From contig BTQL01000004.1 of assembly GCA_036985855.1 (NCBI GenBank), forward strand, positions 6,372 to 70,371: a stretch of 64,000 nt of DNA, read 5' to 3'. How positions within the stretch are numbered: the first letter of the stretch is position 1; each line of letters starts with the position of its first letter. Made by a program: the position numbers and the translations under genes. This stretch comes from Acidimicrobiia bacterium (lineage in GTDB: Bacteria > Actinomycetota > Acidimicrobiia > Spongiisociales > UBA5794). Below are positions 7,846 to 63,506 of this stretch, in pieces. A model generated the notes under the pieces. It was given only the letters and a program-made list of their open reading frames with translations. It made no database searches and had not been told where the DNA came from.

Positions 7846-8079
7846 GAGGGCCCACCATCGGGTCTGTAGAGGTCATCCTCCTGATCCTGGAGGGGATCAT
7901 GACGGCCCGATCCTCGCTGAACGATTCGGATTCCCCGGACTCATCGGCCTCATCTTCCCTGGCATTTTCGCTGCGGGCACCCTGAGCCTGGTCGAAGAGG
8001 TTGAAACCATCGTCTCTGAGGAATGCAACGATGTGACCGCCTGATGGCTGGGAGCCGGGGCCCGTTAGGGTCTGCTCCT

Positions 8080-8904: not shown

Positions 8905-8954
8905 GTCGGTCGTCGTCAGTAGTTGACTGCTACCGTTGCGTCTCAGGAGGCAAC

Positions 8955-9833
8955 GTGGCGACGAGCACGGCCAGTTTCGGTACCGGCAAGCGTGAAGGGC
9001 ACGATTCGTCCGGCTATTACGGCCGGCGGATGCATGCAGCCGGTCGCGATCGCGAGGTCGGCGAACTGGTCGATCCTCCCGCATCTGTGGTTGATCACCT
9101 GTTCCACGGGTCATCCGAGTCGATGCACCAGATTCCGGACAACTGCGTGGCGCTGATGGTGACTTCACCTCCGTACAACGTCGGCAAGGACTATGACGAG
9201 GACCTGGACATCGACGAGTACCTTCAGCTCCTCAACGGGGTGTTCACTGAAACGTTCCGGGTGCTTGAACCCGGCGGGCGGGTTGCCGTGAACGTTGCGA
9301 ACCTCGGCCGGAAGCCATACATCCCACTCAATCAGTACGTGTCGGCGCTTCTGACAGAGATCGGATTCGATCTGCGGGGCGAGATCATCTGGCAGAAGGC
9401 GAAATCTGCTGGAGGGTCATGTGCGTGGGGATCGTGGCAGTCCGCAAAGAACCCGACCCTGCGCGACATCCACGAATACGTCATCGTTGCTTCGAAAGGT
9501 TCGTACGCGCGGGTCAGGAGAGGTGAGGACACGATCTCAAAGGACGAGTTTCTCGACGCCACAGTTTCGATCTGGAACATTCTCCCGGAATCTGCACGGA
9601 GAGTTGGTCATCCGGCCCCGTTCCCCGTCGAACTTCCACGCAGGCTGATCGAGCTGTACACCTTTGAAGCTGACCTGGTGCTTGATCCCTTCCTCGGTTC
9701 GGGAACGACAGCCGTCGCGGCCGTGGAGTCCAGGAGGCACTACGTCGGTTATGAGCTCGATGCCGGATACATCGACATTGCCGAACGCAGGATCCACGAA
9801 GGGCGAACGGGGACTCGCTCGGTCCATCTCTGA
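8955..9833 (+). CDS. Beta-class DNA methyltransferase (N4-cytosine or N6-adenine), solitary
   Basis: Motif IV SPPY (MVTSPPYNVGKDY) precedes motif I (DPFLGSGTT), which is the beta-class order. No restriction endonuclease gene is adjacent. The true start is probably internal (MHAAG.. or MHQIP..). Confidence 0.8.
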   Translation: MATSTASFGTGKREGHDSSGYYGRRMHAAGRDREVGELVDPPASVVDHLFHGSSESMHQIPDNCVALMVTSPPYNVGKDYDEDLDIDEYLQLLNGVFTETFRVLEPGGRVAVNVANLGRKPYIPLNQYVSALLTEIGFDLRGEIIWQKAKSAGGSCAWGSWQSAKNPTLRDIHEYVIVASKGSYARVRRGEDTISKDEFLDATVSIWNILPESARRVGHPAPFPVELPRRLIELYTFEADLVLDPFLGSGTTAVAAVESRRHYVGYELDAGYIDIAERRIHEGRTGTRSVHL

Positions 9834-41673: not shown

Positions 41674-44600
41674 TTACTGAGCATCTCTCAGCTCCCTTGG
41701 TTTGCGAGCGATGAAGTATTTCGCCTGCGGGTGGTGGCAGATGATCGCCGATGTCGTCTGCTCGGGTTGGTACTGGAATCCGGTTTCTGGTCCGACATGG
41801 ATTCCGACGCGGTCCGCTCCGAGAAGGTCTGCAACGGTGAGATTGTCCTCAAGATCCGGACAAGCCGGGTATCCCCATGAGTATCGGCCGCCGCGGTAGC
41901 GCTGTCGGAAGAGACCCCTGATAGTCGGGTCGTCCTCGTTCGCGATTCCAAGCTCCTCGCGCACTCGGGCGTGCCAATACTCAGCAAGAGCTTCAGTCAT
42001 CTCGACCCCGAGACCGTGGAGCTTCAGATATTCTTCGTACCGATCCTCCGAAAAGAGCTGAGCAGTTCGCTGGGAAACTGCAGTTCCCATCGTCACGATG
42101 TGGAATGCTGCGACATCAGTGAGGTCTGCGTCGACCGGACGGAAATAGTCTGCGATGCAAAGCCATGGTGGGCCAGGTTGCCTCGGGAATCGGAACCGTA
42201 CAAGTTCCTGTGTCCGAGTCTGGTCTGCCCACACGATGAGCTCGTTGCCGTGGCCGTTCACGGGGAAGTAGCCATACACAACCTGCGGCTGAAGGAGGTC
42301 CTCGGCGCGTGCCGCAGTGATTGCACGCCGCAGCTCAGGAGCGAGACGTTCCTTGAATTGCGCGTCCGTCTCTCCGTGTTCAGGGCGATAATGCCATTGG
42401 TTGCGGAGCAGTGCCGTCGTGTTGAGATACCCGGCGATCTCGTCGAGTTCGATGCCTTTCACGATACGCGATCCGTAGAACGGAGGATCAGGGATCGGTT
42501 TGTCAGCAGATACCTCCGGAGACCGATCGGGTGCGACTCCATGATCCGTTTCCTTACGATCGATCTTTGGAAGTTCGCGCCTCGGGGACTTTGGTTCGTC
42601 GCGTCTACCAGCTATCCACTCCATTGCATCGAGACCGGCAAAGGCATCCTTGCCATAGATCACGGGACCGGGGTGTCGCCGGGCAAGGTCATCTTCAACG
42701 TAGCTTCGCGTCAGCGCGGCACCGCCGAGGAGAACAGGCACGTCATCGTGACCTCTTCGGGAGAGTTCATCGAGGTTGTCCCGCATCACGAGCGTGCTCT
42801 TCACCAGGAGCCCGCTCATTCCGATCGCATCGGCTTCGTGCTTCTCGAGCGCTTCGATCATTTCAGTGATGGACACCTTGATTCCGAGGTTGTGCACCCG
42901 GTATCCGTTGTTCGTGAGGATGATGTCCACGAGGTTCTTTCCGATGTCGTGGACGTCCCCGGATACCGTTGCAATAACGATGCTGCCGCGGTCAGCGGTG
43001 TCGACGTGGTCGAGGTGTGGCTCGAGGTACCGCACCGATGTTTTCATCGTTTGTGCAGAACGCAGGACGAAAGGGAGCTGCATTTCGCCGGCACCGAATA
43101 GCTCGCCGACGGTTTTCATACCCGCAAGGAGTACATCGTTGATGATCGAGAGCGCAGTCGTTTCTTCAAGTGCTTTGTCGAGGTCGTCTTCGAGACCGAT
43201 CGCGTTCCCTGCAACGATTCGCTTCTCCAGACGTTCGATGAGCGTCAGACCCTCGAATGGGTCTTTTGCCTTTTCGGCGTCTGTCACTGTTTCAAATGCC
43301 TCGAGAAGCACTTCAAGGGGGTCGTATCCTTCTGCCCTGCGGTCATAGACCAGGTCGGTGCATGCTTTGAGATGCTCTTCCTCGATCGCTGAAAGGGGTG
43401 TGATCTTGCCCGCGTGGATGATCGCTGCGTCGAGTCCAGCTTCAAGGCATTCGTAGAGGAAGACGGAGTTGAGCACTCGCCTAGCCGCTGGTCTGAGGCC
43501 GAAGGAGATGTTCGACACCCCGAGCACAGTGCTCACGCCTGGGAGTTCCGATTTGATTCGCTTGATCGCCTGGATCGTTTCCATCCCGTCGCGTCTGAGG
43601 TCGTCGTCACCCGTCGAGAGAGGAAACGTGAGGGGATCGAAGATGAGGTCTTCGGCCCTGAGCCCGTAACGCTCGGTCGCGATCCCATAGAGACGATGGG
43701 CAACTTCCATCTTCCACTCGACGTCGCGTGCCTGACCCCGCTCGTCGATGAGGAGACATATCACGGCCGCCCCGTGTTCCTTTGCGAGAGTGAGCACTCT
43801 GTCAAGGCGAGATCCTGTCTCGTCGCCCGATTCGAGGTTGGCCGAGTTGAGGACACACCTTCCTCCGAGTTGCTCGAGCGCTGCTTGCATGACCTCTGGT
43901 TCGGTTGAGTCGATGACAACCGGTGCAGCGACATCTGTCGAGAATCGTTGGGCGATCGGTGTTATGTCTGCAGCACCGTTTCTTCCCACGTAGTCGACAC
44001 ACAGGTCGACCAGGTGCCCCCCCTCTGCGACCTGATTCTCCGCAATGCCGACACACGCGTCGATGTCTCCATCGAGCATCGCCTCCCTGAAGGCCTTTGA
44101 CCCGTTCGCATTGGTCCGTTCGCCGATGATGAGAAACGACGTGTCCTGGTGAAGCGACACCGCTGAGTAGGTCGAGGTGACTGCGGGTATTGCGGAAGGA
44201 TTCCTCTCGGCTGGCGCCCTGTGACCGACTGCATCGATAAGCGTTGCGATGTATTCGGGCGTCGTGCCACAGCAGCCTCCGACGACACTCACACCGTACT
44301 CCTCGACGAATGTGGTGAGATGTTTGGCGACATCCGACGCACCGACGTCATAGTGCATCTCACCGTTGACGACGGACGGCAGGCCAGCGTTCGGTATCAC
44401 CGATATCGGCACCGTCGCGTGGCGTGACAGCACCCGAATCGGTTCGTACATCTCGACGGGTCCGGTCGCGCAGTTGATGCCGATCACATCTGTGCCGAGT
44501 GCTTCGATCGCAGCGAGTGCGGCACCGATCTCGGTGCCCGGCAACATGCGTCCGGTCAACTCGATTGTCACCTGGGTCTGCAGCGGCACGTCGCGTCCCG

Positions 44601-45129
44601 ATGACCGCATGGCGCGGCGGGCACCGTTGATGGCTGCCTTGACAGAGAGGAGGTCGAACTGCGTCTCGATGATGAGCAGGTCTACTCCTCCGTCGATGAG
44701 GCCTGCGGACTCGATCTCGTATTGGCCGCGCAGGTCCGCGTACGCGATTTGGCCGAGAGTCGGAAGCTTCGTCCCAGGGCCGATGGAACCTGCGACGAAT
44801 CGGTCGTCGAATTCGTCTGCGACATGCCTCGCGATCGTGGCACCAGCGGCAGCGAGCTCGTACGCCCTGTCGGCGAGGTCATATTCGCCGAGCGGTACCC
44901 CGAAGGCACCGAAGGTGTTCGTCTCGATGACATCTGAGCCGACGTCCAGGTAGGCGCGGTGCAGGGACTCGATCACGTCAGGACGGGTGATGTTGAGGAT
45001 CTCGTTGCAGCCTTCGAGGTCGGGACCACCGAAATCCTCGTCGGTGAGGTCCTGTGCTTGGAGCCATGTACCTGTTGCGCCGTCGAAGACGACAACACGC
45101 TGTGAAAGGGTGTCGATGTAGTCGGTCAT
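41674..45129 (-). CDS. metH: Cobalamin-dependent methionine synthase
   Basis: 1151 aa with Hcy-binding, pterin-binding, B12-binding (DxHxxG...) and AdoMet activation domains, all collinear. Confidence 0.95.
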   Translation of the reverse strand: MTDYIDTLSQRVVVFDGATGTWLQAQDLTDEDFGGPDLEGCNEILNITRPDVIESLHRAYLDVGSDVIETNTFGAFGVPLGEYDLADRAYELAAAGATIARHVADEFDDRFVAGSIGPGTKLPTLGQIAYADLRGQYEIESAGLIDGGVDLLIIETQFDLLSVKAAINGARRAMRSSGRDVPLQTQVTIELTGRMLPGTEIGAALAAIEALGTDVIGINCATGPVEMYEPIRVLSRHATVPISVIPNAGLPSVVNGEMHYDVGASDVAKHLTTFVEEYGVSVVGGCCGTTPEYIATLIDAVGHRAPAERNPSAIPAVTSTYSAVSLHQDTSFLIIGERTNANGSKAFREAMLDGDIDACVGIAENQVAEGGHLVDLCVDYVGRNGAADITPIAQRFSTDVAAPVVIDSTEPEVMQAALEQLGGRCVLNSANLESGDETGSRLDRVLTLAKEHGAAVICLLIDERGQARDVEWKMEVAHRLYGIATERYGLRAEDLIFDPLTFPLSTGDDDLRRDGMETIQAIKRIKSELPGVSTVLGVSNISFGLRPAARRVLNSVFLYECLEAGLDAAIIHAGKITPLSAIEEEHLKACTDLVYDRRAEGYDPLEVLLEAFETVTDAEKAKDPFEGLTLIERLEKRIVAGNAIGLEDDLDKALEETTALSIINDVLLAGMKTVGELFGAGEMQLPFVLRSAQTMKTSVRYLEPHLDHVDTADRGSIVIATVSGDVHDIGKNLVDIILTNNGYRVHNLGIKVSITEMIEALEKHEADAIGMSGLLVKSTLVMRDNLDELSRRGHDDVPVLLGGAALTRSYVEDDLARRHPGPVIYGKDAFAGLDAMEWIAGRRDEPKSPRRELPKIDRKETDHGVAPDRSPEVSADKPIPDPPFYGSRIVKGIELDEIAGYLNTTALLRNQWHYRPEHGETDAQFKERLAPELRRAITAARAEDLLQPQVVYGYFPVNGHGNELIVWADQTRTQELVRFRFPRQPGPPWLCIADYFRPVDADLTDVAAFHIVTMGTAVSQRTAQLFSEDRYEEYLKLHGLGVEMTEALAEYWHARVREELGIANEDDPTIRGLFRQRYRGGRYSWGYPACPDLEDNLTVADLLGADRVGIHVGPETGFQYQPEQTTSAIICHHPQAKYFIARKPRELRDAQ

Positions 45130-45231: not shown

Positions 45232-45320
45232 GACATCTCATCGATCAGGCATTGGCACCGAACAGATCGGTTGCCGCGGCTTCACAGGGCCTGTCCCTCC
45301 ACCGCTCTGGATGAGCGCTT
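45232..45320 (-). promoter_or_regulatory. SAM-I (S-box) riboswitch in the metH 5' leader
   Basis: Transcribed strand: CUCAUCCAGAGCGGUGGAGGGACAGGCCCUGUGAAGCCGCGGCAACCGAUCUGUUCGGUGCCAAUGCCUGAUCGAUGAG. It has P1 (CUCAUC/GAUGAG), the GGAGGGA kink-turn, the GGCCC..GCAACC element of P3 and the GGUGCCAAU element of P4. A CGAGCGG-UGAC-CCGCUCG hairpin follows. It lies about 100 nt upstream of the metH ATG. Confidence 0.85.
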
Positions 45321-50004: not shown

Positions 50005-53000
50005 TTAGCTGCAGCCTTTGGAGTCGCCGCAGTTGAGGCAGCGGTAGCAGGAGCCGTTGCGGATCGTGATGTGACCACAGGTGTCACACAGGGGGGCATC
50101 ACCCATCTTGTCTGCGAGCAGCGCCTGGACCGCTGCTGTTTGGACCTCCTGCGCTGAGTGGGCTGCTTGCGGTGCGACGGCCGCTGGCACCGACGCAACG
50201 GATGTTTGCGGAGCAGGCGTCGATACGCTGTCGGCGAACTTCGCTGCCCTCATCTGTGCCTCGATGTCGCGTTCCATCGCAGCTTCCGTCAGGTCGAGTT
50301 GGAGCCCGGCATCCACAGCGGCTCCCTTCGGAGGCTCGGGCAGATCACCTGTGCGATCTGGTGGAACCTGGGCGAGCTCGTCCCTGTGGAGGTACTCGAC
50401 CCCCAGCGCTCTGAACACGTAGTCGATGATCGAGTTCGCCATCTTGATGTTCGGGTGCCCTTCGACCATGCCCCGTGGCTCGAACGTCTGGAACGTGAAC
50501 GTGTCGACGTACTCCTCGAGCGGAACACCGTATTGGAGCCCCTTGCTCACCGCAATGGCGAAACATCCGAGAATCCCCCGCAGCGTTGCGCCCTCTTTTG
50601 CGAGATCCAGGAAGACCTCGCCAAGCGTGCCGTCCTCATATTCGCCCGTGCGAAGGAAGACCTTGTGACCGCCGATACGTGCTTCCTGAGTGAATCCAAC
50701 CCGTCGTGACGGCAGAAGGAACCGGGGTCTCGGCATCGCTTCGTACGCCTCGGTAGGGGACATACCTGGTCGGTACATCCCGCCAAAGATGTCTACCTCG
50801 CGCTCGATCGCTGCGGTGATCTCATCGGGTTCTTCGTCGGACGTGCCTTCGTCGGACGTCGATGACAACGGCTGGGATGCTTTCGAGCCGTCCCTGTAGA
50901 GCGCCATCGCCTTGAGTCCGAGCTCCCAGGACATCTGGTAGGACTCCTCGATGTCCGCGACCGTTGCCTCGTTCGGCATGTTTATGGTCTTTGAGATCGC
51001 ACCCGAAATGAATGGCTGTGCGGCAGCCATCATCTTGATGTGCCCGATGTGATGGATGTAGCGTTCGCCGTACTTACCGTTCTTGTTGGCCGTATCGAAC
51101 ACCGGGAGGTGCTTGTCCCTCAGCCCGGGAGCACCCTCGATTGTCTGACGCCCGCAGATGACGTTGTTCGCCTCATCGATCTCAGCATCGCTGAAGCCGA
51201 GGGCGGAAAGCATGTTGAACCCGAGACCGTTGTACTCCTCTGCGGTGAAACCGAGACGCTGCATCGTCTCTTCGCCCAATGTCCACTGATTGAATGCGAA
51301 ACCGATCTCGAACACGCCGGGAAGCGTTGCTTCGATCTTGTGAAGGTTCTCATCCGTGAACCCTTTTGCGCGGAGTGTCTCAGCGTTGACGCTTGGTGCC
51401 CCCTCGAGGCTCATCGTGCCCAAGACGTAATCGATGATGGTGCTGATCGCCGTTTCGTCGTACCCGAGGCGCGCAAGTGCCGGAGCAACAGACTGGTTGG
51501 CGATCTTGAAGTAGCCGCCCCCAGCGAGTTTCTTGAACTTCACGAGTGCGAAGTCAGGCTCGACACCTGTGGTATCACAATCCATCAGGAGCCCAATGGT
51601 GCCCGTAGGCGCTAAGCATGTGGACTGTGCGTTGCGGTAGCCGTGCTCTTCGCCGCGCGCTACTGCCGTGTCCCATGCGTCGTGGGCGAAGGCCAACATA
51701 TCCGCGGGGCACACGTCTTGGTCGATACCGACGACGGTGTGGCCAATGGCGTCGTACTCAGACTGGTCGGCGTCGTAGGCAGCCTTCTGGTGGTTTCTCA
51801 TCACACGGAGCATCGAGTCGGAGTTCTCGTGATACAGAGGGAACGGCCCAACGACGGAGGCCATCTCCGCAGAAGCTGCATAGGAGTAACCCGTGAGGAT
51901 CGAAGTCAATGCACCGGCGATAGCGCGACCCTCGTCGGAATCATATGCGATGCCCATCCGCATGAGGATGGAGCCGAGGTTTGCGTACCCGAGGCCGAGC
52001 GTGCGGTAGTCGTAGGAACCCTGGGCAATGGCTTCAGACGGGAAGTGTGCCATCGTCACCGAGATCTCGAGAACGATCGTCCAGAGGCGGATTGCGTACT
52101 TGTAGCTCTCGAGATCGAAATCACCGGTTGCGTCGTCGTAGAACGTGCCGAGGTTCACGGAGGCAAGGTTGCACGCCGTGTTGTCCAAGAAGAGGTATTC
52201 CGAACATGGGTTGGACGCCCTGATCTGACCGCCGGCGGGGGAGGTGTGCCACTCGTTGATGGTGGTGTGGAACTGGACACCTGGATCAGCCGACGCCCAA
52301 GCGGCTTGCGCGATCTGATGCCACAGATCACGTGCCTTGACGGTTTTCATCGGTGCGCCGTCAGTCCGACGCGTGAGATCCCAGTCTTCATCTGCCATTG
52401 CGGCATCGATGAACTCGTTTGTCATGCGGACCGTGTTGTTCGAGTTCTGACCCGAGACCGTGGCATATGCCTCGCCGTTGAAGTCCGAGGAGTAGCCACA
52501 GGCGATAAGGGCTTTGACCTTCTCTTCTTCGACAGCTTTCCAGTTGATGAACGTCTCGATGTCTGGGTGATCGACGTCGAGGATGACCATCTTCGCCGCC
52601 CGACGGGTGGTGCCGCCCGACTTTATTGCTCCTGCCGCGCGGTCGCCGACCTTGAGGAATGACATCAGACCAGACGACTTGCCTCCACCGGAGAGCGGTT
52701 CGCCCTCGGCCCTGAGATTCGAGAAGTTGGTTCCAGTACCTGATCCGAACTTGAAAAGGCGGGCCTCCCTGACCCAGAGATCCATGATGCCGCCAGCGTT
52801 CACCAGGTCGTCATCAACGGACTGGATGAAACACGCGTGGGGTGATGGCCTGCTGTACGAGTCGGGAGATGCGGTGAGCTCCTCGGTCTCGGGATCTACG
52901 AACCAGAACCCTTGCTCTGGTCCTTCTATGCCGTATCGATGATGCAGCCCCGTGTTGAACCACTGGGGGGAGTTCGGTGCCGCCATCTGGTGCAGAAGCA

Positions 53001-53391
53001 TGTAGGCGATCTCGTCCTCGAACACCTGCGCATCATGGGTGGAAGCAAAGTATCCGTTCTCCTCACCCCACCAACGCCACGTGGAGGCAAGGCGGTCGAT
53101 GACCTGGCGGGCCGAGTTCTCGGGTCCGAGTACCGGATCTCCGCTGTCGTCGACGATCGCGGTGCCCTTCTCATCGAACTGGGGTACACCTGCTTTGCGA
53201 AAGTACTTGGACACCATGATGTCCGCCGCCACCTGGGACCAGTCTGCGGGTATCTCAGCATCGGTCATTTCGAAGACGACCGACCCGTCCGGATTCGTGA
53301 TCCTCGAGTCCCGCCTCGACCATTGGACGGTGTCATACGGGTTTACACCCACGGTGGTGAACCGCCGTTCGATGCTGAGTCCTGCTGCCAT
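50005..53391 (-). CDS. nrdJ: Adenosylcobalamin-dependent (class II) ribonucleotide reductase
   Basis: Class II RNR core with a C-terminal Zn-ribbon (CDTCGHITIRNGSCYRCLNCG). The track ORF extends to 53463; MAAGLSIE at 53391 is the likely start. No intein signature seen. Confidence 0.9.
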   Translation of the reverse strand: MAAGLSIERRFTTVGVNPYDTVQWSRRDSRITNPDGSVVFEMTDAEIPADWSQVAADIMVSKYFRKAGVPQFDEKGTAIVDDSGDPVLGPENSARQVIDRLASTWRWWGEENGYFASTHDAQVFEDEIAYMLLHQMAAPNSPQWFNTGLHHRYGIEGPEQGFWFVDPETEELTASPDSYSRPSPHACFIQSVDDDLVNAGGIMDLWVREARLFKFGSGTGTNFSNLRAEGEPLSGGGKSSGLMSFLKVGDRAAGAIKSGGTTRRAAKMVILDVDHPDIETFINWKAVEEEKVKALIACGYSSDFNGEAYATVSGQNSNNTVRMTNEFIDAAMADEDWDLTRRTDGAPMKTVKARDLWHQIAQAAWASADPGVQFHTTINEWHTSPAGGQIRASNPCSEYLFLDNTACNLASVNLGTFYDDATGDFDLESYKYAIRLWTIVLEISVTMAHFPSEAIAQGSYDYRTLGLGYANLGSILMRMGIAYDSDEGRAIAGALTSILTGYSYAASAEMASVVGPFPLYHENSDSMLRVMRNHQKAAYDADQSEYDAIGHTVVGIDQDVCPADMLAFAHDAWDTAVARGEEHGYRNAQSTCLAPTGTIGLLMDCDTTGVEPDFALVKFKKLAGGGYFKIANQSVAPALARLGYDETAISTIIDYVLGTMSLEGAPSVNAETLRAKGFTDENLHKIEATLPGVFEIGFAFNQWTLGEETMQRLGFTAEEYNGLGFNMLSALGFSDAEIDEANNVICGRQTIEGAPGLRDKHLPVFDTANKNGKYGERYIHHIGHIKMMAAAQPFISGAISKTINMPNEATVADIEESYQMSWELGLKAMALYRDGSKASQPLSSTSDEGTSDEEPDEITAAIEREVDIFGGMYRPGMSPTEAYEAMPRPRFLLPSRRVGFTQEARIGGHKVFLRTGEYEDGTLGEVFLDLAKEGATLRGILGCFAIAVSKGLQYGVPLEEYVDTFTFQTFEPRGMVEGHPNIKMANSIIDYVFRALGVEYLHRDELAQVPPDRTGDLPEPPKGAAVDAGLQLDLTEAAMERDIEAQMRAAKFADSVSTPAPQTSVASVPAAVAPQAAHSAQEVQTAAVQALLADKMGDAPLCDTCGHITIRNGSCYRCLNCGDSKGCS

Positions 53392-53449
53392 AGGTTTCCT
53401 TCTCTCGGTCTCGTGCCACGCATCCGGGCGGTATATCCACAGACTTGTC

Positions 53450-53510
53450 CACATGCGCAACATGTTGTGTCCTATATGGCTCCATACCCACTACATGTTG
53501 CGTGGTTGCA
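53450..53510 (-). promoter_or_regulatory. Candidate tandem NrdR boxes upstream of nrdJ
   Basis: A perfect palindrome ACAACATGTTGT at about 53457..53470 and an imperfect second copy CTACATGTTGCG about 33 bp away, in a 280-bp AT-richer leader. Both resemble the remembered NrdR-box consensus (acaCwAtATaTwGtgt). Confidence 0.4.
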
Positions 53511-56004: not shown

Positions 56005-57846
56005 GTGTCCGGTGATTATCCTCCGCGTATGAGACACCGACCCTCACGGCAGGCGCCGACGTGGGTGCCAGATGTCGACACGATCGACAGCGCAAACCTC
56101 ACAGCCGCCATGATGTCGCGGGGTATCGGTACGTACGATGAGTTCCATCGCTGGTCCGTCGCGGATCCGGACGGTTTTTGGGCGATGGTTGTTGAAGACC
56201 TCGAGATCCGATTCGACGAGGAACCGGCGGCTATCCGCGGAAGTGATGATGCCACAGACCCTGATTGGCTTCCTGGGGCTTCATTGAACATCGTGCGATC
56301 ATGCCTGGACCACGACCCCGGTGCTGCCGCCATCGTGGCCGGTTCCCAGGACGCACTCCGGACGGTCTCGGTAGGCGAACTGACAGAGCGCGTAGCCGCG
56401 TTTGCTGGAGGATTCGATCGGGCCGGGTACACCGAGGGCGATGCAGTGGCAATCGTGATGCCCATGACCGTCGAGGCGGTCGTCGCCTATCTCGGAATCA
56501 TCTCGGCGGGTGGTGTGGTCGTATCGATAGCCGACTCCTTCGTCTCGGACGAGGTCGAAACTCGACTCTCGATTACGTCACCGGTCGCGGTTGTTACCCA
56601 GGATCGAGCCATCCGGCTCGGTCGGGTGCTGCCGATGTACGCCAAATGTGTCGAGGCCGGGGCCCCGCCATGCATTGTCGTCGAAACCGGATCAGGGATG
56701 CCGCTGCGAGACGGGGACATCTGGTGGGACGATTTTGTTGTTCCCGGCTCTGTTTTCGATCCGGTCGCACTGGCTGCATCTGCCCACACGAACATCCTCT
56801 TTTCATCGGGCACGACCGGTGACCCGAAAGCGGTCCCGTGGTCACAGACAACACCCATCAAGGCGGCAATGGATGGTCGGTTTCATCAGGACATTCACAG
56901 TGGTGATGTCGTGGCCTGGCCCACGAATCTTGGATGGATGATGGGGCCGTGGCTCATCTATGCAGCACTCCTCAATGGAGCGACGATCGCGTTGTACGAC
57001 GACGCACCAACGAGCGAAGGTTTCATACGATTCATCCGGAATGCGGGCGTTACAATGCTTGGCATCGTTCCATCGATCGTTGCGGCATGGCGCGGATCCG
57101 GTGTCCTGGCAGAGGGCGACTGGACTGCGGTTCGTGTGGTGTCATCAACCGGTGAGGCATCGAACCCAGATGACTACGACTGGCTCATGCGGGTGGCTGG
57201 TGATGTGCCGCTGATCGAGTATTGCGGTGGCACCGAGATCGGTGGTGGGTATGTGACGGGTACGGTGCTCCAGCCTGCGGTTGCCTCGCGTTTCACCACT
57301 CCTGCTCTCGGACTTGACATGGTCCTGTTCGATGACGAAGGAGAGCCCGCCGACGAGGGAGAGGTATTCCTCGTACCGCCATCGATGGGGCTTTCGACAG
57401 AGCTGTTGACCGGCGATCACCGGATCGTCTACTACGAAGGCCTCCCGGCATACAACCGACCACTACGTCGTCACGGCGACCAGATGGTGAGAGAGGACGG
57501 TGGCCTTTATCGAGCTCTGGGGAGGGTCGACGACGCGATGAACCTTGGAGGCATCAAGGTCTCGTCCGCAGATCTCGAAGAAGCTATCGGTGACCTCGAC
57601 GGTGTGGCCGAAGTTGCTGCGGTGGCTGTCCCTCCGAAAGGCGGGGGTCCCGATCGACTCGTCGTGTTCGCCGTGCCGGATGATGCGCCCGACGTGCACG
57701 CACTGCGCGCAGAGATGCAACAGAGGATCAGTGCCACTCTGAACCCGCTGTTCAAGGTACATGAGGTCGTGTTGATCGATGAGCTCCCCCGCACCGCATC
57801 CCACAAGGTGATGCGTCGTTCACTGAGGGCCGACTACCAGGATTGA
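56005..57846 (+). CDS. Acetyl-CoA-synthetase-family adenylate-forming acyl-CoA ligase (ACS/acetoacetyl-CoA-synthetase-like)
   Basis: ACS-type N-terminal domain (YDEFHRWSVADPDGFW), an AMP-binding core (FSSGTTGDPKAV), and a C-terminal Lys in 'PRTASHKVMRR'. Confidence 0.8.
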   Translation: MSGDYPPRMRHRPSRQAPTWVPDVDTIDSANLTAAMMSRGIGTYDEFHRWSVADPDGFWAMVVEDLEIRFDEEPAAIRGSDDATDPDWLPGASLNIVRSCLDHDPGAAAIVAGSQDALRTVSVGELTERVAAFAGGFDRAGYTEGDAVAIVMPMTVEAVVAYLGIISAGGVVVSIADSFVSDEVETRLSITSPVAVVTQDRAIRLGRVLPMYAKCVEAGAPPCIVVETGSGMPLRDGDIWWDDFVVPGSVFDPVALAASAHTNILFSSGTTGDPKAVPWSQTTPIKAAMDGRFHQDIHSGDVVAWPTNLGWMMGPWLIYAALLNGATIALYDDAPTSEGFIRFIRNAGVTMLGIVPSIVAAWRGSGVLAEGDWTAVRVVSSTGEASNPDDYDWLMRVAGDVPLIEYCGGTEIGGGYVTGTVLQPAVASRFTTPALGLDMVLFDDEGEPADEGEVFLVPPSMGLSTELLTGDHRIVYYEGLPAYNRPLRRHGDQMVREDGGLYRALGRVDDAMNLGGIKVSSADLEEAIGDLDGVAEVAAVAVPPKGGGPDRLVVFAVPDDAPDVHALRAEMQQRISATLNPLFKVHEVVLIDELPRTASHKVMRRSLRADYQD

Positions 57847-57916
57847 CGGTCATGCGGCTGTCTGCGCATCACGCAATCACACGTATCATCCATGCCAGAG
57901 AACGAGGAGGTTCCCG

Positions 57917-58804
57917 ATGGGGGTCGATGCGCCATACGAAGCGCTGAAGGAACGCGTCAGAGGGCTTGACGGCGTTGTGATGGTCATCGGTGATGCCGAG
58001 ACAGGAAAAACGACTCTCGCTCGCATGTTGCTGCGCGATGCGGTCGAGCACGGCCGTACGGTGGTCTATGTCGACGGTGATGTGGCTGCGGCAACGGTGG
58101 GACCGATCGGATGTGTCGGGTTGAAGGTGGTGTCATCTCTCGATGACTGCGAGACGCTCCTCGTTCCCGACGAGCTCCGATTCGTTGGGGCGGTCGAACC
58201 GGATGGAGTCGTCCTGCCACACGTGGTTGCCGTCACTGCGTTGATCGACATCGCCAAGGAGATGGCTGATCTCGTCATCTGTGATACAACCGGCGTGGTC
58301 ACTGGCGTGGTTGGCCAGACGCTGAAGTATCACCTTGTCGAGTTGGCTCAGCCGGCGCTTGTCATAGCGATCAGACGTGGCGCAGAGCTCGATCCGGTCA
58401 TCGGCATGCTGAGACGCTTCCTGTCCACGAGAGTCGCAGAAGTCGACCCTCCGGAGGATATTGTCTCGGGTTCCCCGATCGATCGGCAGGACACCAGAGC
58501 CGAAGCTCTGCACCGAAACCTCGGCGATGATCCACCGCGATGGAGGGTACAAACGACGGTGTTCGCCCCGACACTGCCGGACGGATTCGATGTCAGCCGA
58601 CTGGATGGCATGCTCGTTGGCGTCCAGGACGAACGCGGCCGATGCCTTGGTCTCGGAGTGCTCGAACACGTTGATGGAACCGTGAAGGTGGCAACAAGAT
58701 TCGGCGACGAGATGCGGGGCCTCAGACTCGGGTCGATCAGGGTCGATCTGGAAACGTTCGCAACGAGCCGAGTGAGACTGCGCGAGCTGATATTCGGCGT
58801 CTGA
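57917..58804 (+). CDS. Clp1/Grc3-family P-loop protein (polynucleotide 5'-hydroxyl-kinase-like; SIMIBI-class NTPase)
   Basis: P-loop segment 'VVMVIGDAETGKTTLARMLLRDAVEHGRTVVYVDGDVAAATVGPIG' closely parallels the remembered Clp1 segment '[45 protein letters not shown]'. The Walker-B-like 'LVICDTTGVV' corresponds to the Clp1 'INTxGW' motif. Confidence 0.5.
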   Translation: MGVDAPYEALKERVRGLDGVVMVIGDAETGKTTLARMLLRDAVEHGRTVVYVDGDVAAATVGPIGCVGLKVVSSLDDCETLLVPDELRFVGAVEPDGVVLPHVVAVTALIDIAKEMADLVICDTTGVVTGVVGQTLKYHLVELAQPALVIAIRRGAELDPVIGMLRRFLSTRVAEVDPPEDIVSGSPIDRQDTRAEALHRNLGDDPPRWRVQTTVFAPTLPDGFDVSRLDGMLVGVQDERGRCLGLGVLEHVDGTVKVATRFGDEMRGLRLGSIRVDLETFATSRVRLRELIFGV

Positions 58805-58852
58805 GCTCGCTCCGCTCCGCGGCCTCCTTCAGGTGCACATCGATCCCACGCG

Positions 58853-59116
58853 ATGATGGTCGGGGGCACACCGTGGACAACGAAGGAATGCGATGATTCT
58901 GGAGCTGCGACCGGCAACGGTGAACGATACGTCGCGGCAGTTGTGGCGCATGCCCGTGAGACCTTCGAGCACCGCCGACTTCGCGTGACCATCGCCTGGG
59001 GTAACGAGCGGGCGTTTCGCGTGTGGTCCGGCGTGGGGTTCGTCGAGGTCGTCCGCTTCGTCTCATCGCGCACAGTTATGGGAACGAACGAGTTCGTCGT
59101 GCTCGAGTTCGCGTGA
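58853..59116 (+). pseudogene. Probable GNAT acetyltransferase remnant (internally deleted and frameshifted)
   Basis: A GNAT-like N-terminus, MILELRPATVNDT.., sits in one frame (from about 58893). A GNAT-like C-terminus, RLRVTIAWGNERAFRVWSGVGFVEV, sits in another frame (58853..59116). The central acetyl-CoA-binding motif A is missing. Confidence 0.3.
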
Positions 59117-59179
59117 GCTGCGCGGCGCTTATTGCCGATGACAGGGTGCGGCCCTTGAGATCGAGGTCCCGACGAGGTC

Positions 59180-60373
59180 CTACACACTCTCCAGAAGGAC
59201 AGCCGTTCCGAGTCCAGAGCCCGCGGGCACCGTCGCCCCTCCGAAGTCAAGGTCACGCTGCTTCAGCGCTTTGGCGAGGTGCACCGAGATTCTCAGGCCC
59301 GACATGCCGACGGGATGCCCCAGTGCAACAGATCCTCCGTCGACGTTCAGCCTTTCCCGATCCCAGCCACCCTTCTCCTCGCACGCGAGGAGCTGCACAG
59401 CAAAACCCTCGTTGCATTCGATGAGGTCGAGATCGTCCAGGGTTCTGTCCGCTCCGGAGAGCGCTGCGTTGAGGGCGTCGACACAGGAGTAACCCATGAG
59501 ATTCGGGTCGCACCCGACCATGGCCGTTCCCTCTGTGACGATGCGGGCGAGAGGCTCGAGATTGTGCTTGTTCATCGCGTCGGCGCTCGCGATGATCGCC
59601 GCTGCTGCGCCGTCGTTGATCGTGGCGGCATTTCCCGCAGTGATGACACCACCAGGCTGAACGCTCCGAAGTTCGCCAAGGATCTCAACGGTCGACCCGG
59701 CGCGTGGGTTCTCGTCGACGTCGAAGATCATCGATCCGCGCCTCAAAGGCACCTTGATCGGCACGATCTCATCGGTGAAGCGGCCGTCGGCGATGGCGGC
59801 GAGCGCTCGTTCGTGGGACACGATGGCGTATTCATCCATCTGACGTCTGGAGATGCCGTCGACCTCGGCGTGATGTTCGGCGACATCGATCATGTAGTTG
59901 GCGTCGCCCCACATCCCGGACCCCGCCAGGGTGCACTCGCGTAACGTGTCGAGAAACGCACCGCTTCCGAGCCGGTGCCCCCATCGAGAACCCGGCACCA
60001 TGTGCGGGGCGTTACTCATCGATTCGAGTCCGAGAACCATCACCATGTCGGCCGCACCGATAGCGATCTGATAGGTCGCCTGGATCAGGGCGGCCATCGA
60101 TGAACAGCACTGCATGTTGATCGTGAAGGCTGGCACGCCCTCGGGTACCCCGACGCGCATACCGACGATACGCGCCGGGTTCGATTCGGTCATGTCCTGA
60201 AGAACCATCCCCGCGATGATGAGATCGAGCGCCCCCGCATCGACGTTCACTCGATCGAGCAGCGAGGCGGCCACGTCGGACCCGAACTCGGTCGCCCGCA
60301 GAGGTTTCAGCGAACCTCCGAACTTGCCTATGGGACTCCTCAGACCTTCGATGAGGAACACATCTCTGCCCAC
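59180..60373 (-). CDS. Thiolase (acetyl-CoA C-acetyltransferase)
   Basis: Active-site Cys region (NMQCCSSMAAL), thiolase signatures including 'CNEGFAVQ', and the C-terminal GGATVPAGSG motif. GTG start. Confidence 0.9.
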   Translation of the reverse strand: MGRDVFLIEGLRSPIGKFGGSLKPLRATEFGSDVAASLLDRVNVDAGALDLIIAGMVLQDMTESNPARIVGMRVGVPEGVPAFTINMQCCSSMAALIQATYQIAIGAADMVMVLGLESMSNAPHMVPGSRWGHRLGSGAFLDTLRECTLAGSGMWGDANYMIDVAEHHAEVDGISRRQMDEYAIVSHERALAAIADGRFTDEIVPIKVPLRRGSMIFDVDENPRAGSTVEILGELRSVQPGGVITAGNAATINDGAAAAIIASADAMNKHNLEPLARIVTEGTAMVGCDPNLMGYSCVDALNAALSGADRTLDDLDLIECNEGFAVQLLACEEKGGWDRERLNVDGGSVALGHPVGMSGLRISVHLAKALKQRDLDFGGATVPAGSGLGTAVLLESV

Positions 60374-60432: not shown

Positions 60433-60470
60433 ATGTACAATCGCGACGGAGACGGAAAGGAGACTCGACC

Positions 60471-62189
60471 GTGTCCGATGACGCAAGCGAGGCTCGATTG
60501 AGAGAGCTCTCAGCGCAATGGCAGGCCGAGTACGAGAAACTCGTTGTGAAGTTTGGCGATGCCGCTCCCAAGCGGGCGACGAATCCGACGACACACTCAG
60601 GTCTCCCTCTCAAGTCGGCCTATTTCCCCCATGACGTCGCAGAGCTCGACCTGGTCGAGGCCCCCGGTGCGTACCCGTTCACACGAGGGAATCTGGCTGC
60701 GCAATACCAGCTGATGCACTGGGCCAACCAGCCGGTCATCGGTTACGGGCTGCCGGAGGACACGAGGGATCGCATGGATTCCCTCGCCGAACAGGGCATG
60801 GTCGGCTACTTCGGCCAGCGGTTCTACAACCTCGTCTACGACCTGGTTTCCCACGAGGGCCTCGACCCGGACCATCCCGCAGCGAGGGGCCGCGTCGGTC
60901 AGGCCGGAATGGGCGTGTACTCGAAGGCCGATATGGCCCGACTGTTCACAGGGATGGATCTGACGAAGATGAACGTCGTCCACATCTCGTATTACCAGGT
61001 GGTACCGGCCCTCGCGCAGTACATCGCCCTTGCCGAGGATCAGGGGCTGACACCCGATCAGCTGCGCGGGAACTCGATGAACTGGTACCACCAGTCCGCT
61101 TATGTCGGCATGAGCGCCTTTCCACCACGCCAGGGCCACCGGCTGGCAGTCGACCTGATCCAATACTGCACCAGGGAAATGCCCAGGTGGAACACCACCA
61201 ACTTCTTCGGATACGGTGCGGAGGAGGCCGGAGGGACCGCGGTCGAAGAGATTGCGTTCATGCTCGCCTACGGCATCGATCTGGTGCGAGCATGCATCGC
61301 GTCTGGGCTCACGGCCGACGAGGTGCTGCCACGCTTCGGTTTCCAGGTCGCCCAGGCGAATGACTTCTTCGAGGAGATCTGCAAGATTCGCGCGCTACGA
61401 CAGATCTGGGCGACAACCATGAAGGAACGATTCGGAGCGGAGAATCTCCGGTCGATGCATGTACGTATCCACACGCACACGTCTGGCGTATCCCTGACGG
61501 CCCAACAGCCTCTCGTGAACCTGATCAGGACGACGCTGCACGCTTTCGGGGCAGCGTTGTCCGGTGTGCAAGCGATGGAGGTGTCCGCCTACGACGAGGC
61601 CTACGCCCTCCCGACGGAGGAGGCGGCAACCCTCGCCCTGCGCGTCCAGCAGGTGATCCAGGAGGAGACCAACATCACGTCGGTTTCCGATCCTCTCGCC
61701 GGGTCCTACTACGTTGAATCGTTGACCAGCCAGCTCGCAGAAGCTGCGCTCGAACTCGTAGAGCAGATCGAGGCACAGGGAGGTTACATAGCCGCTCAGG
61801 AATCTGGTTGGCTTCGGCGACGGATTGAGACGTCCGCAGAACGCTGGCGAGATCTCATCGATTCTGGTGAGCGTTCCGTTGTGGGACTGAACAAGTACCA
61901 GACCGACGGGCCGCCCCCAACGGATCTCTTTGTGGTTGAGTCCGAGGTCGAGCAGATCGCAGTCAAACGCATCAAGGAACTCCGGGCCAACAGGGACAAC
62001 GACCGGTGGGAGAGGGCTATGTGCGAGTACGCAGAGGCCGCGGAGGAGCTGGCCACGAAGGACTATGCCGACATCGACGGCAGTCTCATGGAAGCGGCTA
62101 TCGACGCTGCGCGAGCAGACGCCACGACAGGAGAGATGATGGGTGTCCTCAAGAGCGCCCTGGGATGGACGGCACCACATGAGTATTGA
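60471..62189 (+). CDS. Acyl-CoA mutase catalytic (large) subunit, MCM family, without fused B12 domain (IcmA/HcmA-like)
   Basis: About 572 aa from a GTG start preceded by GGAAAGGAG. The MCM-family substrate-binding TIM barrel carries PFTRG..., a Tyr in '..VIGYGLPEDT..' aligned to the MCM Tyr89 region, and 'HEGLDPDHPAARGRVGQAGMGV' aligned to the MCM '[22 protein letters not shown]'. The track ORF starts at 60216 inside the thiolase gene. Confidence 0.85.
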   Translation: MSDDASEARLRELSAQWQAEYEKLVVKFGDAAPKRATNPTTHSGLPLKSAYFPHDVAELDLVEAPGAYPFTRGNLAAQYQLMHWANQPVIGYGLPEDTRDRMDSLAEQGMVGYFGQRFYNLVYDLVSHEGLDPDHPAARGRVGQAGMGVYSKADMARLFTGMDLTKMNVVHISYYQVVPALAQYIALAEDQGLTPDQLRGNSMNWYHQSAYVGMSAFPPRQGHRLAVDLIQYCTREMPRWNTTNFFGYGAEEAGGTAVEEIAFMLAYGIDLVRACIASGLTADEVLPRFGFQVAQANDFFEEICKIRALRQIWATTMKERFGAENLRSMHVRIHTHTSGVSLTAQQPLVNLIRTTLHAFGAALSGVQAMEVSAYDEAYALPTEEAATLALRVQQVIQEETNITSVSDPLAGSYYVESLTSQLAEAALELVEQIEAQGGYIAAQESGWLRRRIETSAERWRDLIDSGERSVVGLNKYQTDGPPPTDLFVVESEVEQIAVKRIKELRANRDNDRWERAMCEYAEAAEELATKDYADIDGSLMEAAIDAARADATTGEMMGVLKSALGWTAPHEY

Positions 62190-62598
62190 GATCGCACCGG
62201 GCGAGCCCATCCGGGTTCTGCTAGCCAAACCAACACATGACTGCCACGATCGCGGCGTTCGCCTTGTTGCAAAGAAGATGCGAGATGCAGGCTTCGAGGT
62301 CATCTTCATCAACTTCCTCCTACCCGAGGAGGTGGTGCAGGCTGCCGTCGACGAGGACGTCCATGTGGTCGGCGTCTCGACATCCGCAGGAGGCCACCTT
62401 CCCATCTTCGAAGACGTCATCGCCGGACTTGCTTCCCAGGGTCGAGGCGACGCGGTCGTGATCGCTGGTGGTGTGATTCCGCCAGGGGATGAGACGACAC
62501 TGCGGGGTTGGGGTGTCGAGGCGATCTTCGGCCCCGGCACCAACGCGGCCCAGGCGATCGAGATGATCAGGGCGCGGCTCACTCCGGTTTCGCCATGA
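62179..62598 (+). CDS. Acyl-CoA mutase small subunit (cobalamin-binding domain, IcmB/HcmB-like)
   Basis: B12-binding DxHxxG motif (KPTHDCHDRGV) and a Rossmann-like fold. ATG at about 62179 overlaps the large-subunit stop. Confidence 0.85.
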   Translation: MSIEIAPGEPIRVLLAKPTHDCHDRGVRLVAKKMRDAGFEVIFINFLLPEEVVQAAVDEDVHVVGVSTSAGGHLPIFEDVIAGLASQGRGDAVVIAGGVIPPGDETTLRGWGVEAIFGPGTNAAQAIEMIRARLTPVSP

Positions 62599-63506
62599 GG
62601 TCGCCAAGAAAAGTCGCCATCATCGGTGGCGGAGGTGTTATGGGTCACGGCATCGCGCTTGCCTGCCTGCAACACTCCGATGCAGATGTCTCGATCATCT
62701 CCCGCCGAGAAGAATCCGTTGAGCGTGGGCTCGACCTCATTCTCGAAGGTCGGTTTGGGCTTGCCCGAGGCGTTGAAAAGGGTCGCCTCACCGCGGAGCA
62801 GGCCGCGGACGCGAGGTCGCGTCTGTCGGGCACCGTCAACTACGAGGAAGGGCTGTCCGGTGCCGATCTCGTCTTCGAGACCGTGCCGGAGGTCCTCGAC
62901 ATCAAACACGAGGTCCTGCGTGAGGCCGAGCGCTGCGCATCGGACGACGCGGTGCTCGCCACGAACACCTCATCGATCCTGATCGCAGAACTGGCTGCTC
63001 CCCTTGACGACCCGAGCCGGCTCGTTGGCACCCATTGGTTCTATCCCGCGAACATCCTCCCGCTCGTTGAGGTGGCTCGCAGTGCGTTCGTCGATGAGAA
63101 CGCCCTCACCGGTGTTGTCGCATACCTAGGCACGATCGGAAAGCGGCCCGTGGTGGTGAAGGACTCCCCGGGGTTCTTCATGACGCGTTTCATCAACAAC
63201 TTCCTGGCCGAGGCCATCCGGCTGGTGGAACTCGGGATCGCGGGTCCTGCGGAGATCGATGAGATGGTCAAGACGGGGCTCGGCTGGCCCATGGGTGTGT
63301 TTGAACTTCTCGACGCTTCGAGTTTCGAAGCCTTCTACCACGCCCAGGAATACCTCCACGAGACGTGCGGCGAACGGTATGCCGTACCGCCGCTCGCACG
63401 TCAAGCGTTCTCCGCCGGATACCTCGGTTCCAAAGACCTCAAGCCTGGAAGCCGGGGCGGTTGGTACGACTTCCTCGGTGTCGAGAAGACAGAGGGCACA
63501 GCTTGA
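62595..63506 (+). CDS. 3-Hydroxyacyl-CoA dehydrogenase (NAD-binding)
   Basis: N-terminal GxGxxG (VAIIGGGGVMGHGIA) and the 3HCDH C-terminal domain. ATGA overlap with the mutase small subunit. Confidence 0.85.
   Translation: MRSPRKVAIIGGGGVMGHGIALACLQHSDADVSIISRREESVERGLDLILEGRFGLARGVEKGRLTAEQAADARSRLSGTVNYEEGLSGADLVFETVPEVLDIKHEVLREAERCASDDAVLATNTSSILIAELAAPLDDPSRLVGTHWFYPANILPLVEVARSAFVDENALTGVVAYLGTIGKRPVVVKDSPGFFMTRFINNFLAEAIRLVELGIAGPAEIDEMVKTGLGWPMGVFELLDASSFEAFYHAQEYLHETCGERYAVPPLARQAFSAGYLGSKDLKPGSRGGWYDFLGVEKTEGTA

Follow-up and report, generated by a model that had tools for sequence, protein, structure and literature searches.

We analysed a stretch of 64,000 nt from an Acidimicrobiia bacterium (contig BTQL01000004.1, positions 6,372 to 70,371; hereafter the window), in which the gene at 57917..58804 encodes a bona fide two-domain bacterial member of the Clp1/Grc3 family. 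The original prediction, made from the sequence alone, had placed this product with the Clp1/Grc3-type P-loop proteins rather than with ordinary bacterial kinases, and had proposed as an alternative that it replaces MeaB as chaperone of the B12-dependent mutase encoded nearby. The family assignment is confirmed by profile and structure searches, while the chaperone proposal fails on several counts. The gene and its parts are the following:

57917..58804, plus strand: gene of the Clp1-like P-loop protein, with an ATG start (295 residues plus stop).
57904..57910, plus strand: Shine-Dalgarno sequence GAGGAGG, read off the sequence, 6 nt before the ATG.
57989..58012, plus strand: Walker A motif (P-loop) GDAETGKT, residues 25-32, with Lys31 and Thr32; it fits GxxxxGK[ST].
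58073..58090, plus strand: Walker B region DGDVAA, residues 53-58, placed by hidden Markov model alignment to human VELDVGQ.
58283..58297, plus strand: clasp-equivalent DTTGV, residues 123-127, aligned to human NTCGW.
58484..58498, plus strand: lid-like RQDTR (Arg190 and Arg194), aligned to the lid of human and C. elegans Clp1.
58532..58801, plus strand: C-terminal beta-rich domain, residues 206-295, with predicted strands in residues 232-285 (pLDDT 76-87).

The segments on which the original prediction relied are all present in the 295-residue protein, namely GDAETGKT at residues 25-32, the following segment VYVDGDVAAATVGPIG at 50-65 and CDTTGV at 122-127. The start Met is invariant across the homologue alignment, and scans for promoters, terminators and inverted repeats near the gene gave nothing informative.

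The Pfam family PF16575 (CLP1_P) is matched at E=1.5e-23, with 84 bits against a cut-off of 26.6, over residues 25-200 of the protein and profile positions 1-184 of 188. Other P-loop Pfam families remain below their cut-offs and are confined to 30-40 residues round Walker A. In the search for PF03308 (MeaB) as against PF16575, which had been suggested as a check, PF03308 is not among the 16 Pfam families listed for the protein at E<=10. The [NT]KxD guanine-specificity motif is not present in the 295-residue sequence, whose sole Asn precedes Leu, and NCBIfam and PADLOC returned only P-loop-local noise. With a profile built from 58 family members, human Clp1 (8hmy_E) scores E=3.8e-23 and C. elegans Clp1 (4ohv) E=1.3e-21; the alignment covers the entire kinase domain, pairing Walker A, the Walker B region with the catalytic Asp, the clasp region and the lid with their counterparts in both proteins. 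The RecA entries that top sequence searches of the PDB were set aside as an artefact of engineered RecA concatemers, which sum weak P-loop matches.

The same assignment emerges from structure. When an AlphaFold2 model of the protein (pLDDT 81, pTM 0.83) was compared with the PDB using Foldseek, the best 23 matches were all Clp1, Grc3 or Nol9 (E 6.6e-16 to 2.5e-8; TMq 0.55-0.70); FtsY and SRP54 follow as weaker matches, from E=2e-5 upward, and no MeaB is found among the 50 best. The P-loop domain makes up about 63% of the protein. Therefore, TMq values of 0.68-0.70 to Clp1, exceeding the 0.63 attainable by the P-loop domain alone, indicate that the C-terminal domain also superposes on the C-terminal domain of Clp1. 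As modelled, the protein has a Clp1-type fold consisting of a P-loop kinase domain and a C-terminal beta domain. A Pfam scan assigned no family to the C-terminal domain (residues 206-295), including no Clp1 C-terminal family. Within the window's clade, this domain is the best-conserved part of the protein, with a mean pairwise identity of 73% as compared to 61% for the P-loop domain. Full-length alignment with Egibacteraceae and other Actinomycetota members includes its motifs, WRV..VF.P.LP..FD, LVG..D..G.C.G.G and GLRLGS.R.D.

Relatives of the protein are numerous. A word-indexed search returned at least 1040 homologues, the best 120 of which are all 66-96% identical and come from Acidimicrobiia or Actinomycetota metagenome-assembled genomes (MAGs). 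Among the species-representative genomes of GTDB at least 131 stretches encode a relative; 80 of these 131, 55-92% identical and nearly all labelled Acidimicrobiia, form the GTDB set used below. In an exhaustive profile search, 1,963 clusters (50% identity) scored E<=1e-3 and 1,330 scored E<=1e-10, their members including Egibacteraceae, Methylomirabilota and Chthonomonadales. Two size classes were observed, one of about 295 residues that matches the profile over its full length, and one of about 355 residues that matches it in the kinase domain only. In a neighbour-joining tree the window's clade is nested in the actinobacterial 295-residue family, beside a group in which the S-adenosylmethionine hydrolase gene described below (SAM_HAT) has a divergent arrangement. 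Overall, the gene belongs to a vertically inherited actinobacterial family. In one Acidimicrobiia MAG, JAUVPA01 (loci L033 and L060), the Clp1-like gene occurs twice, with products 65% and 60% identical to that of the window; the two are either paralogues or the sign of a mixed bin.

The survey of Saito et al. (2019) found Clp1 in 0.9% of the complete genomes of bacteria and, within UniProt, in 144 bacterial species. Kinase activity has been demonstrated for a single bacterial Clp1, that of Thermus scotoductus (Ts-Clp1, UniProt E8PQM6), which phosphorylates 5'-OH RNA and, at higher enzyme concentration, DNA too; an archaeal Clp1 is likewise an experimentally established RNA/DNA 5'-kinase (PMC6777427). 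Thus, the description of bacterial Clp1 as rare and functionally unexplored stands in its first half for cultured bacteria, while the second half is contradicted by Ts-Clp1. By its published description, Ts-Clp1 resembles the window protein in being bacterial, in its short N-terminus, in its membership of the Clp1_P family and in an earlier label as GTPase or uncharacterised protein. Database names are also already in place for the clade, "Clp1/GlmU family protein" at NCBI and "polynucleotide 5'-kinase involved in rRNA processing" at JGI. As one more member of a bacterial family already catalogued, named and kinase-active in one representative, the window gene would in itself matter little.

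Four motifs characterise Clp1/Grc3 proteins: Walker A, GxxxxGK[S/T]; Walker B, [D/E]hhQ; the clasp, [T/S/L]xGW; and the lid, RxxxxR (PMC6777427, PMC5900568). We compared them residue by residue in 80 members of the window's clade and in 84 other actinobacterial relatives. Walker A is intact (G25-DAET-G30-K31-T32), with K-T kept in 79/80 clade members, and the catalytic acidic residue is present, Asp55 pairing with the Asp of human VELDVGQ in a D-x-D that is found in all 80. This conservation indicates that the phosphoryl-transfer machinery is under selection. The lid-like R190-QDT-R194 is one residue shorter than RxxxxR, but human and C. elegans Clp1 have their lid at the aligned position; both Arg are kept in 49/80 clade members and in all 84 other relatives.

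By homology, the window protein would be a nucleoside triphosphate (NTP)-dependent 5'-OH kinase acting on nucleic-acid ends, a reading to which we give roughly an even chance, with both catalysis and acceptor carried over from the family. Binding of the NTP-Mg complex would fall to Lys31 and Thr32 and activation of a 5'-hydroxyl to Asp55; the lid residues Arg190 and Arg194 would stabilise the transition state, while the gamma-phosphate would pass to the 5'-OH of, presumably, an RNA or DNA end. Some distant relatives offer mild support for a function in nucleic-acid end-processing in parts of the family. In Methylomirabilota, a 360-residue Clp1-like protein is encoded between Fpg and a radical SAM protein, followed by PolX with its PHP domain (L085-L087, 7152-11949), and the gene of a 316-residue member, set between those for NUDIX and UDG, overlaps both at the stop and start codons (L089, 7567-9556); both arrangements look like DNA-end processing modules. 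A DNA-repair context was rejected as a general rule for bacterial Clp1: it was seen in Methylomirabilota and at the one NUDIX-Clp1-UDG locus, whereas the neighbours at three further loci of the 355-residue class vary.

Several observations weigh against the kinase reading. The Walker-B Gln is replaced by Ala58 (D55-V-A-A58) and is found in 0/80 clade members, where the position is occupied by A (41), S (23), V (7), T (5), R (3) or I (1), as compared to Q (62), R (21) and L (1) in the 84 other relatives. The clasp Trp is replaced by Val127 (T124-T-G-V127), although T-x-G itself is kept; position 127 is Val in 71/80 clade members, and Trp was found there in no bacterial relative examined. Moreover, about 30% of clade members lack the second lid Arg, which the window protein retains; the conserved neighbours in the window's clade include no RNA- or DNA-repair gene; and the neighbours of the 355-residue class are heterogeneous at the three further loci. 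In Grc3, the Walker-B Gln contacts the first bridging phosphate of RNA and the clasp provides RNA binding; the Q286A mutation cuts activity 4-5 fold, and W364A leaves the enzyme nearly inactive (PMC5900568). In the alignments, then, the window's clade keeps the residues for phosphoryl transfer but has lost the two with which canonical Clp1 holds RNA, a clade-specific variation of the active site. For this reason the acceptor is uncertain and the transferred label "polynucleotide 5'-kinase involved in rRNA processing" is unsafe for the clade. On the other hand, since the Gln-to-Ala change lowers the activity of Grc3 just 4-5 fold, loss of the Gln need not abolish kinase activity.

Comparison with the characterised systems leads to a similar picture. 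With the RNA 5'-hydroxyl kinases human CLP1, C. elegans Clp1 and Pyrococcus horikoshii Clp1, the window protein shares the PF16575 domain, in which Walker A, the catalytic Asp and the lid Arg align, at TMq values of up to 0.70 and at an identity of 11-20% to the solved Clp1-type structures. It differs from eukaryotic and archaeal Clp1 in lacking the N-terminal domain of the eukaryotic proteins, in the Gln-to-Ala and clasp Trp-to-Val replacements, and in its bacterial host, which has neither tRNA-splicing endonuclease nor cleavage-factor partners. With the pre-rRNA 5'-kinases Grc3 and Nol9, whose name JGI transferred to the clade, it shares the kinase fold (Foldseek E 7e-12 to 2.5e-8); these proteins, however, work in an obligatory complex with the Las1 nuclease, for which there is no counterpart here, possess large N- and C-terminal domains, and, in the case of Grc3, depend on a clasp Trp that is absent here.

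An alternative to the kinase reading is that the protein binds NTP without phosphorylating anything and serves as a nucleotide-dependent switch or scaffold, with its C-terminal domain mediating protein or RNA interaction. The decay of the contact residues in this clade (Gln in none of the members, both lid Arg in only 49 of 80, Trp absent) would fit such a role, as would a C-terminal domain that is more conserved than the P-loop domain. A precedent exists in Saccharomyces cerevisiae Clp1, a subunit of cleavage factor IA which is reported to bind ATP without kinase activity (PMC3245249). Yeast Clp1, however, is a eukaryotic scaffold bound to Pcf11, whereas the window protein keeps the catalytic Asp and both lid Arg. 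Indeed, an almost invariant P-loop Lys-Thr, two almost invariant Asp and two retained lid Arg form a pattern that fits a catalytically active phosphotransferase, and we consider a role without kinase activity rather unlikely.

A different substrate is suggested by the gene neighbourhood in the wider family. A metagenome scan using non-Acidimicrobiia members as queries gave 80 loci, 38-52% identical to the window protein, with a common block of genes coding for a histone-deacetylase-like protein, a PF15698 phosphatase, sometimes HTH_17, the Clp1-like protein, SAM_HAT, an epimerase and an acyltransferase. SAM_HAT (DUF62) is the (R)-S-adenosylmethionine (SAM) hydrolase family, an identity confirmed by both Pfam and NCBIfam. 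Among the metagenome loci with at least 2 kb on both flanks, which represent deeper actinobacterial branches, 47 of 48 have SAM_HAT no more than 1.2 kb from the Clp1-like gene, in 41 cases downstream in the same direction (smallest gaps 30-250 nt) and in 6 upstream and divergent. It also adjoins the Clp1-like gene in each of 3 loci retrieved one by one, and the Egibacteraceae protein HUH06915.1 is a family member encoded beside SAM_HAT. The window's clade still has SAM_HAT on the same strand 8-10 kb downstream in 16 loci. The pairing is documented by the following loci:

L084, L088, L090 and L091-L170: loci behind the pairing of SAM_HAT with the Clp1-like gene, for example L114 at 7992-9666, L141 at 805-2435 and L103 at 820-2512.

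A SAM_HAT-adjacent sub-lineage among these loci (L114, L120, L128, L130 and 14 further metagenome loci) carries Arg instead of the Walker-B Gln (DTDVGRTTVGP) and has DTSSL in its clasp region. Variation at the Gln position thus extends through the actinobacterial family, beyond the window's clade.

These data led us to weigh whether the Clp1-like protein could be a nucleoside kinase, specifically an adenosine 5'-kinase, or have some other role coupled to (R)-SAM hydrolase. The products of the hydrolase from damaged SAM are adenosine and methionine; on this reading, the kinase would then act on the 5'-OH of the adenosine to give AMP. Chemically, this 5'-OH is the group that Clp1 phosphorylates, and a free nucleoside has no bridging phosphate, so that the Gln position would be free to vary as it does in the family (Q, R, A, S, V), in which the clasp is never Trp. 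Furthermore, the pairing survives a change in orientation, which is a hint of functional coupling. Against this stand the unrelated genes between the Clp1-like gene and SAM_HAT in a subset of loci, and the absence of any SAM_HAT gene from the 64-kb window, where the Clp1-like gene consequently has no such neighbour. The pair is also part of a larger conserved block, so its adjacency may be inherited synteny rather than functional coupling, and we know of no Clp1-family enzyme that uses a free nucleoside as substrate. Overall, we regard a role of this kind as unlikely. Published work on (R)-SAM hydrolase gives adenosine and methionine as its products, leaves its physiological role under debate and names no kinase partner (10.1101/2025.08.29.672840; PMC12120602); our literature search found no paper linking the enzyme with Clp1 or polynucleotide kinase.

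The corresponding proposal for the whole family is more doubtful still. It holds that the actinobacterial 295-residue Clp1-like proteins would not be polynucleotide kinases at all but partners of (R)-SAM hydrolase, for instance adenosine 5'-kinases that turn damaged SAM into AMP and methionine, and that the Acidimicrobiia clade, having neither the adjacency nor the two contact residues, would perhaps have moved to another substrate or to a non-catalytic role. The near-constant SAM_HAT pairing in the wider family nonetheless provides (R)-SAM hydrolase with a concrete, testable partner and a Clp1-type kinase with a candidate substrate other than a polynucleotide.

Upstream, the kinase candidate of the window follows an acyl-CoA synthetase-like gene:

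56005..57846, plus strand: AMP-forming acyl-CoA synthetase-like gene (Pfam ACAS_N, AMP-binding and AMP-binding_C), with a 70-nt spacer to the Clp1-like gene.

Its best NCBIfam match, acetoacetate-CoA ligase, is well under the cut-off. The gene order typical of the clade begins with a class II ribonucleotide reductase, an MFS transporter and a secreted 182-residue protein, all on the minus strand, then the acyl-CoA synthetase-like and Clp1-like genes on the plus strand; it continues with a 177-residue VOC-like protein, usually on the minus strand, and with a GT4 glycosyltransferase, an acetyltransferase, asparaginase II, RsiG, an M23 peptidase and a ThiS-like protein, all on the minus strand. 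We also considered the 177-residue protein as a 2H phosphoesterase that might form an RNA-healing pair with the Clp1-like protein, an idea that was dropped, as it has no Pfam or NCBIfam match and its sequence resembles a glyoxalase/VOC domain. Membership in an anti-phage defence system was likewise rejected, the PADLOC and NCBIfam matches being confined to the P-loop.

The co-directional upstream gene raises the possibility that the Clp1-like protein works with the synthetase-like enzyme, and with an amidotransferase, in a small-molecule ligase/amidotransferase pathway. Of the 65 relatives with 2.5 kb or more of sequence upstream, 59 have the synthetase-like gene there in the same direction; between the two genes, 32 loci, about half of the relatives, encode a class I glutamine amidotransferase; and no terminator is predicted in the 70-nt spacer of the window. 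However, the genes found in the gap are variable and unrelated, since in other loci it contains a membrane protein of about 360 residues (with a weak, sub-threshold ion-channel match) or a metallo-beta-lactamase; it measures less than 200 nt in just 11 of the 59 loci, and the sister group carries SAM_HAT upstream instead. This argues for a conserved chromosomal order rather than a tight operon. Moreover, the entire 20-kb region is syntenic in the clade, and for this reason the adjacency carries little information. A partnership with the synthetase is thus very improbable. A CobQ/CTP-synthase-style amidoligase acting together with these two enzymes was rejected on the same variability of the intervening genes; the CbiA match that had prompted the idea is weak (E=8e-4) and restricted to Walker A.

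From the end of the Clp1-like gene to the window's right edge, Pfam and NCBIfam matches outline a separate cluster of genes for acyl-CoA metabolism:

58805..59179: synteny breakpoint of 375 bp, holding an open reading frame for 87 residues at 58853-59116.
59180-60373, minus strand: thiolase.
~60468-62189, plus strand: acyl-CoA mutase large subunit.
~62179-62598, plus strand: B12-binding mutase small subunit.
~62595-63506, plus strand: 3-hydroxyacyl-CoA dehydrogenase.
~63503 to the window edge (64000), plus strand: TetR gene, whose frame runs off the window.

The original prediction described the Clp1-like gene as embedded in an acyl-CoA metabolic cluster. The neighbours are indeed as described, with the synthetase-like gene upstream and the thiolase, mutase subunits and dehydrogenase downstream; the latter, however, constitute a separate unit, set off by a break in synteny right after the stop codon. 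In tblastx comparisons with six relatives (82-91% identity), conservation is continuous from the reductase gene through the Clp1-like gene and ends at 58804-58848. None of the genes found downstream in relatives, from the VOC-like to the ThiS-like one, is present in the 64-kb window. Conversely, the thiolase, either mutase subunit and the 3-hydroxyacyl-CoA dehydrogenase occur in 0/80 GTDB loci (flanks up to 10 kb), and the thiolase and the mutase large subunit in 0/80 metagenome loci. A second assembly (L171, 3,161 nt) is 100% identical to window positions 56275-59435, thus spanning the junction between the Clp1-like and thiolase genes, and therefore the junction is real and not a chimera of one assembly. 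The arrangement may also exist in one relative, whose Clp1-like protein is 96% and whose mutase is 95% identical to that of the window, as both proteins list a longest contig of 23,689 nt. The open reading frame at 58853-59116 (plus strand) was called as a gene in the Logan assembly, has no Pfam match and may be a remnant or spurious.

The adjacency of the Clp1-like gene to the mutase is thus the outcome of a local rearrangement right after its stop codon and is coincidental. The gene sits in a conserved Acidimicrobiia segment comprising the ribonucleotide reductase, the MFS transporter, the secreted protein, the acyl-CoA synthetase-like gene and the Clp1-like gene itself, and, in this genome and perhaps its closest relatives, the rearrangement set a self-contained mutase cluster beside it. 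This cluster encodes thiolase, mutase, dehydrogenase and TetR, to which synteny adds MeaB. The idea that the mutase block had been acquired horizontally was rejected, as GC content is uniform across the junction (0.58-0.63 over 50-64 kb).

The content of the mutase cluster is best seen in an orthologous locus on a 5.25-Mb contig (L175), where the order is thiolase on the minus strand, then the mutase large subunit, the B12-binding small subunit, 3-hydroxyacyl-CoA dehydrogenase, TetR, MeaB and enoyl-CoA hydratase, all on the plus strand. From thiolase through TetR, its proteins are 68, 71, 66, 72 and 53% identical to those of the window, and order and orientation are the same up to TetR. The relevant segment is:

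L175, 11274-12888: TetR to MeaB/enoyl-CoA hydratase segment of the orthologous cluster.

The MeaB of L175 is canonical (PF03308 match, GAPGAGKST, VETVGTGQSE, NKAD). As the window ends inside TetR, which MeaB follows directly in L175, the reported lack of a MeaB gene is most likely an artefact of the window edge; by synteny with this one orthologous locus, a MeaB gene is very probably to be expected just past the right edge.

The proposal that the Clp1-like protein is a MeaB-replacing G-protein chaperone of the adjacent B12-dependent acyl-CoA mutase can be judged on this basis. The gene is physically near the mutase, across a junction confirmed in a second assembly and perhaps shared by a close relative; the protein has a SIMIBI-like P-loop fold, with weak structural matches to FtsY and SRP54; MeaB/ArgK, the G3E-family GTPase chaperone of methylmalonyl-CoA mutase, is likewise a P-loop NTPase broadly of the SIMIBI type, and its gene can adjoin acyl-CoA mutase genes; and no MeaB gene lies within the window, where the only real P-loop open reading frames are the Clp1-like gene and two ABC transporter genes. 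Yet MeaB is absent from both the Pfam families listed at E<=10 and the 50 best structural matches, [NT]KxD is lacking, no association with mutase genes was found in the 160 related loci, and the cluster very probably has a MeaB of its own; the chaperone reading, the most interesting of those offered, is effectively refuted. Functionally, the Clp1-like protein is unconnected with the mutase, and no linkage between their genes is conserved.

As to the mutase itself, orthologues of its large subunit are widely conserved, at 70-73% identity in Alphaproteobacteria and Streptomyces, and a search of a plasmid collection during the follow-up of the cluster gave no match. The large subunit is equally far from the methylmalonyl-CoA mutase (MCM) and 2-hydroxyisobutyryl-CoA mutase entries in the PDB (E ~1e-95 each). 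At the positions that we take to determine specificity, Tyr89 of MCM is replaced by Val and Gln197 by Met, the position of MCM Arg207 holds no Arg, and that of HcmA Asp117 is Val; as these residues differ, the enzyme is presumably something other than a methylmalonyl-CoA mutase. With thiolase and dehydrogenase genes on its flanks, it may be of the hydroxybutyryl/hydroxyisobutyryl-CoA type.

Finally, two observations concern the rest of the window. A SAM riboswitch (RF00162, 69.8 bits) is located at 45235-45317 on the minus strand, directly upstream of an open reading frame for 1151 residues (41674-45129, minus strand) whose product reads from its sequence as a putative B12-dependent methionine synthase. 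Together with the class II-type ribonucleotide reductase at 50005-53463 (minus strand), whose Pfam assignment is borrowed from an 80%-identical homologue in L001, and with the acyl-CoA mutase at 60468-62598 (plus strand), this makes three apparently B12-dependent enzymes encoded within 21 kb.

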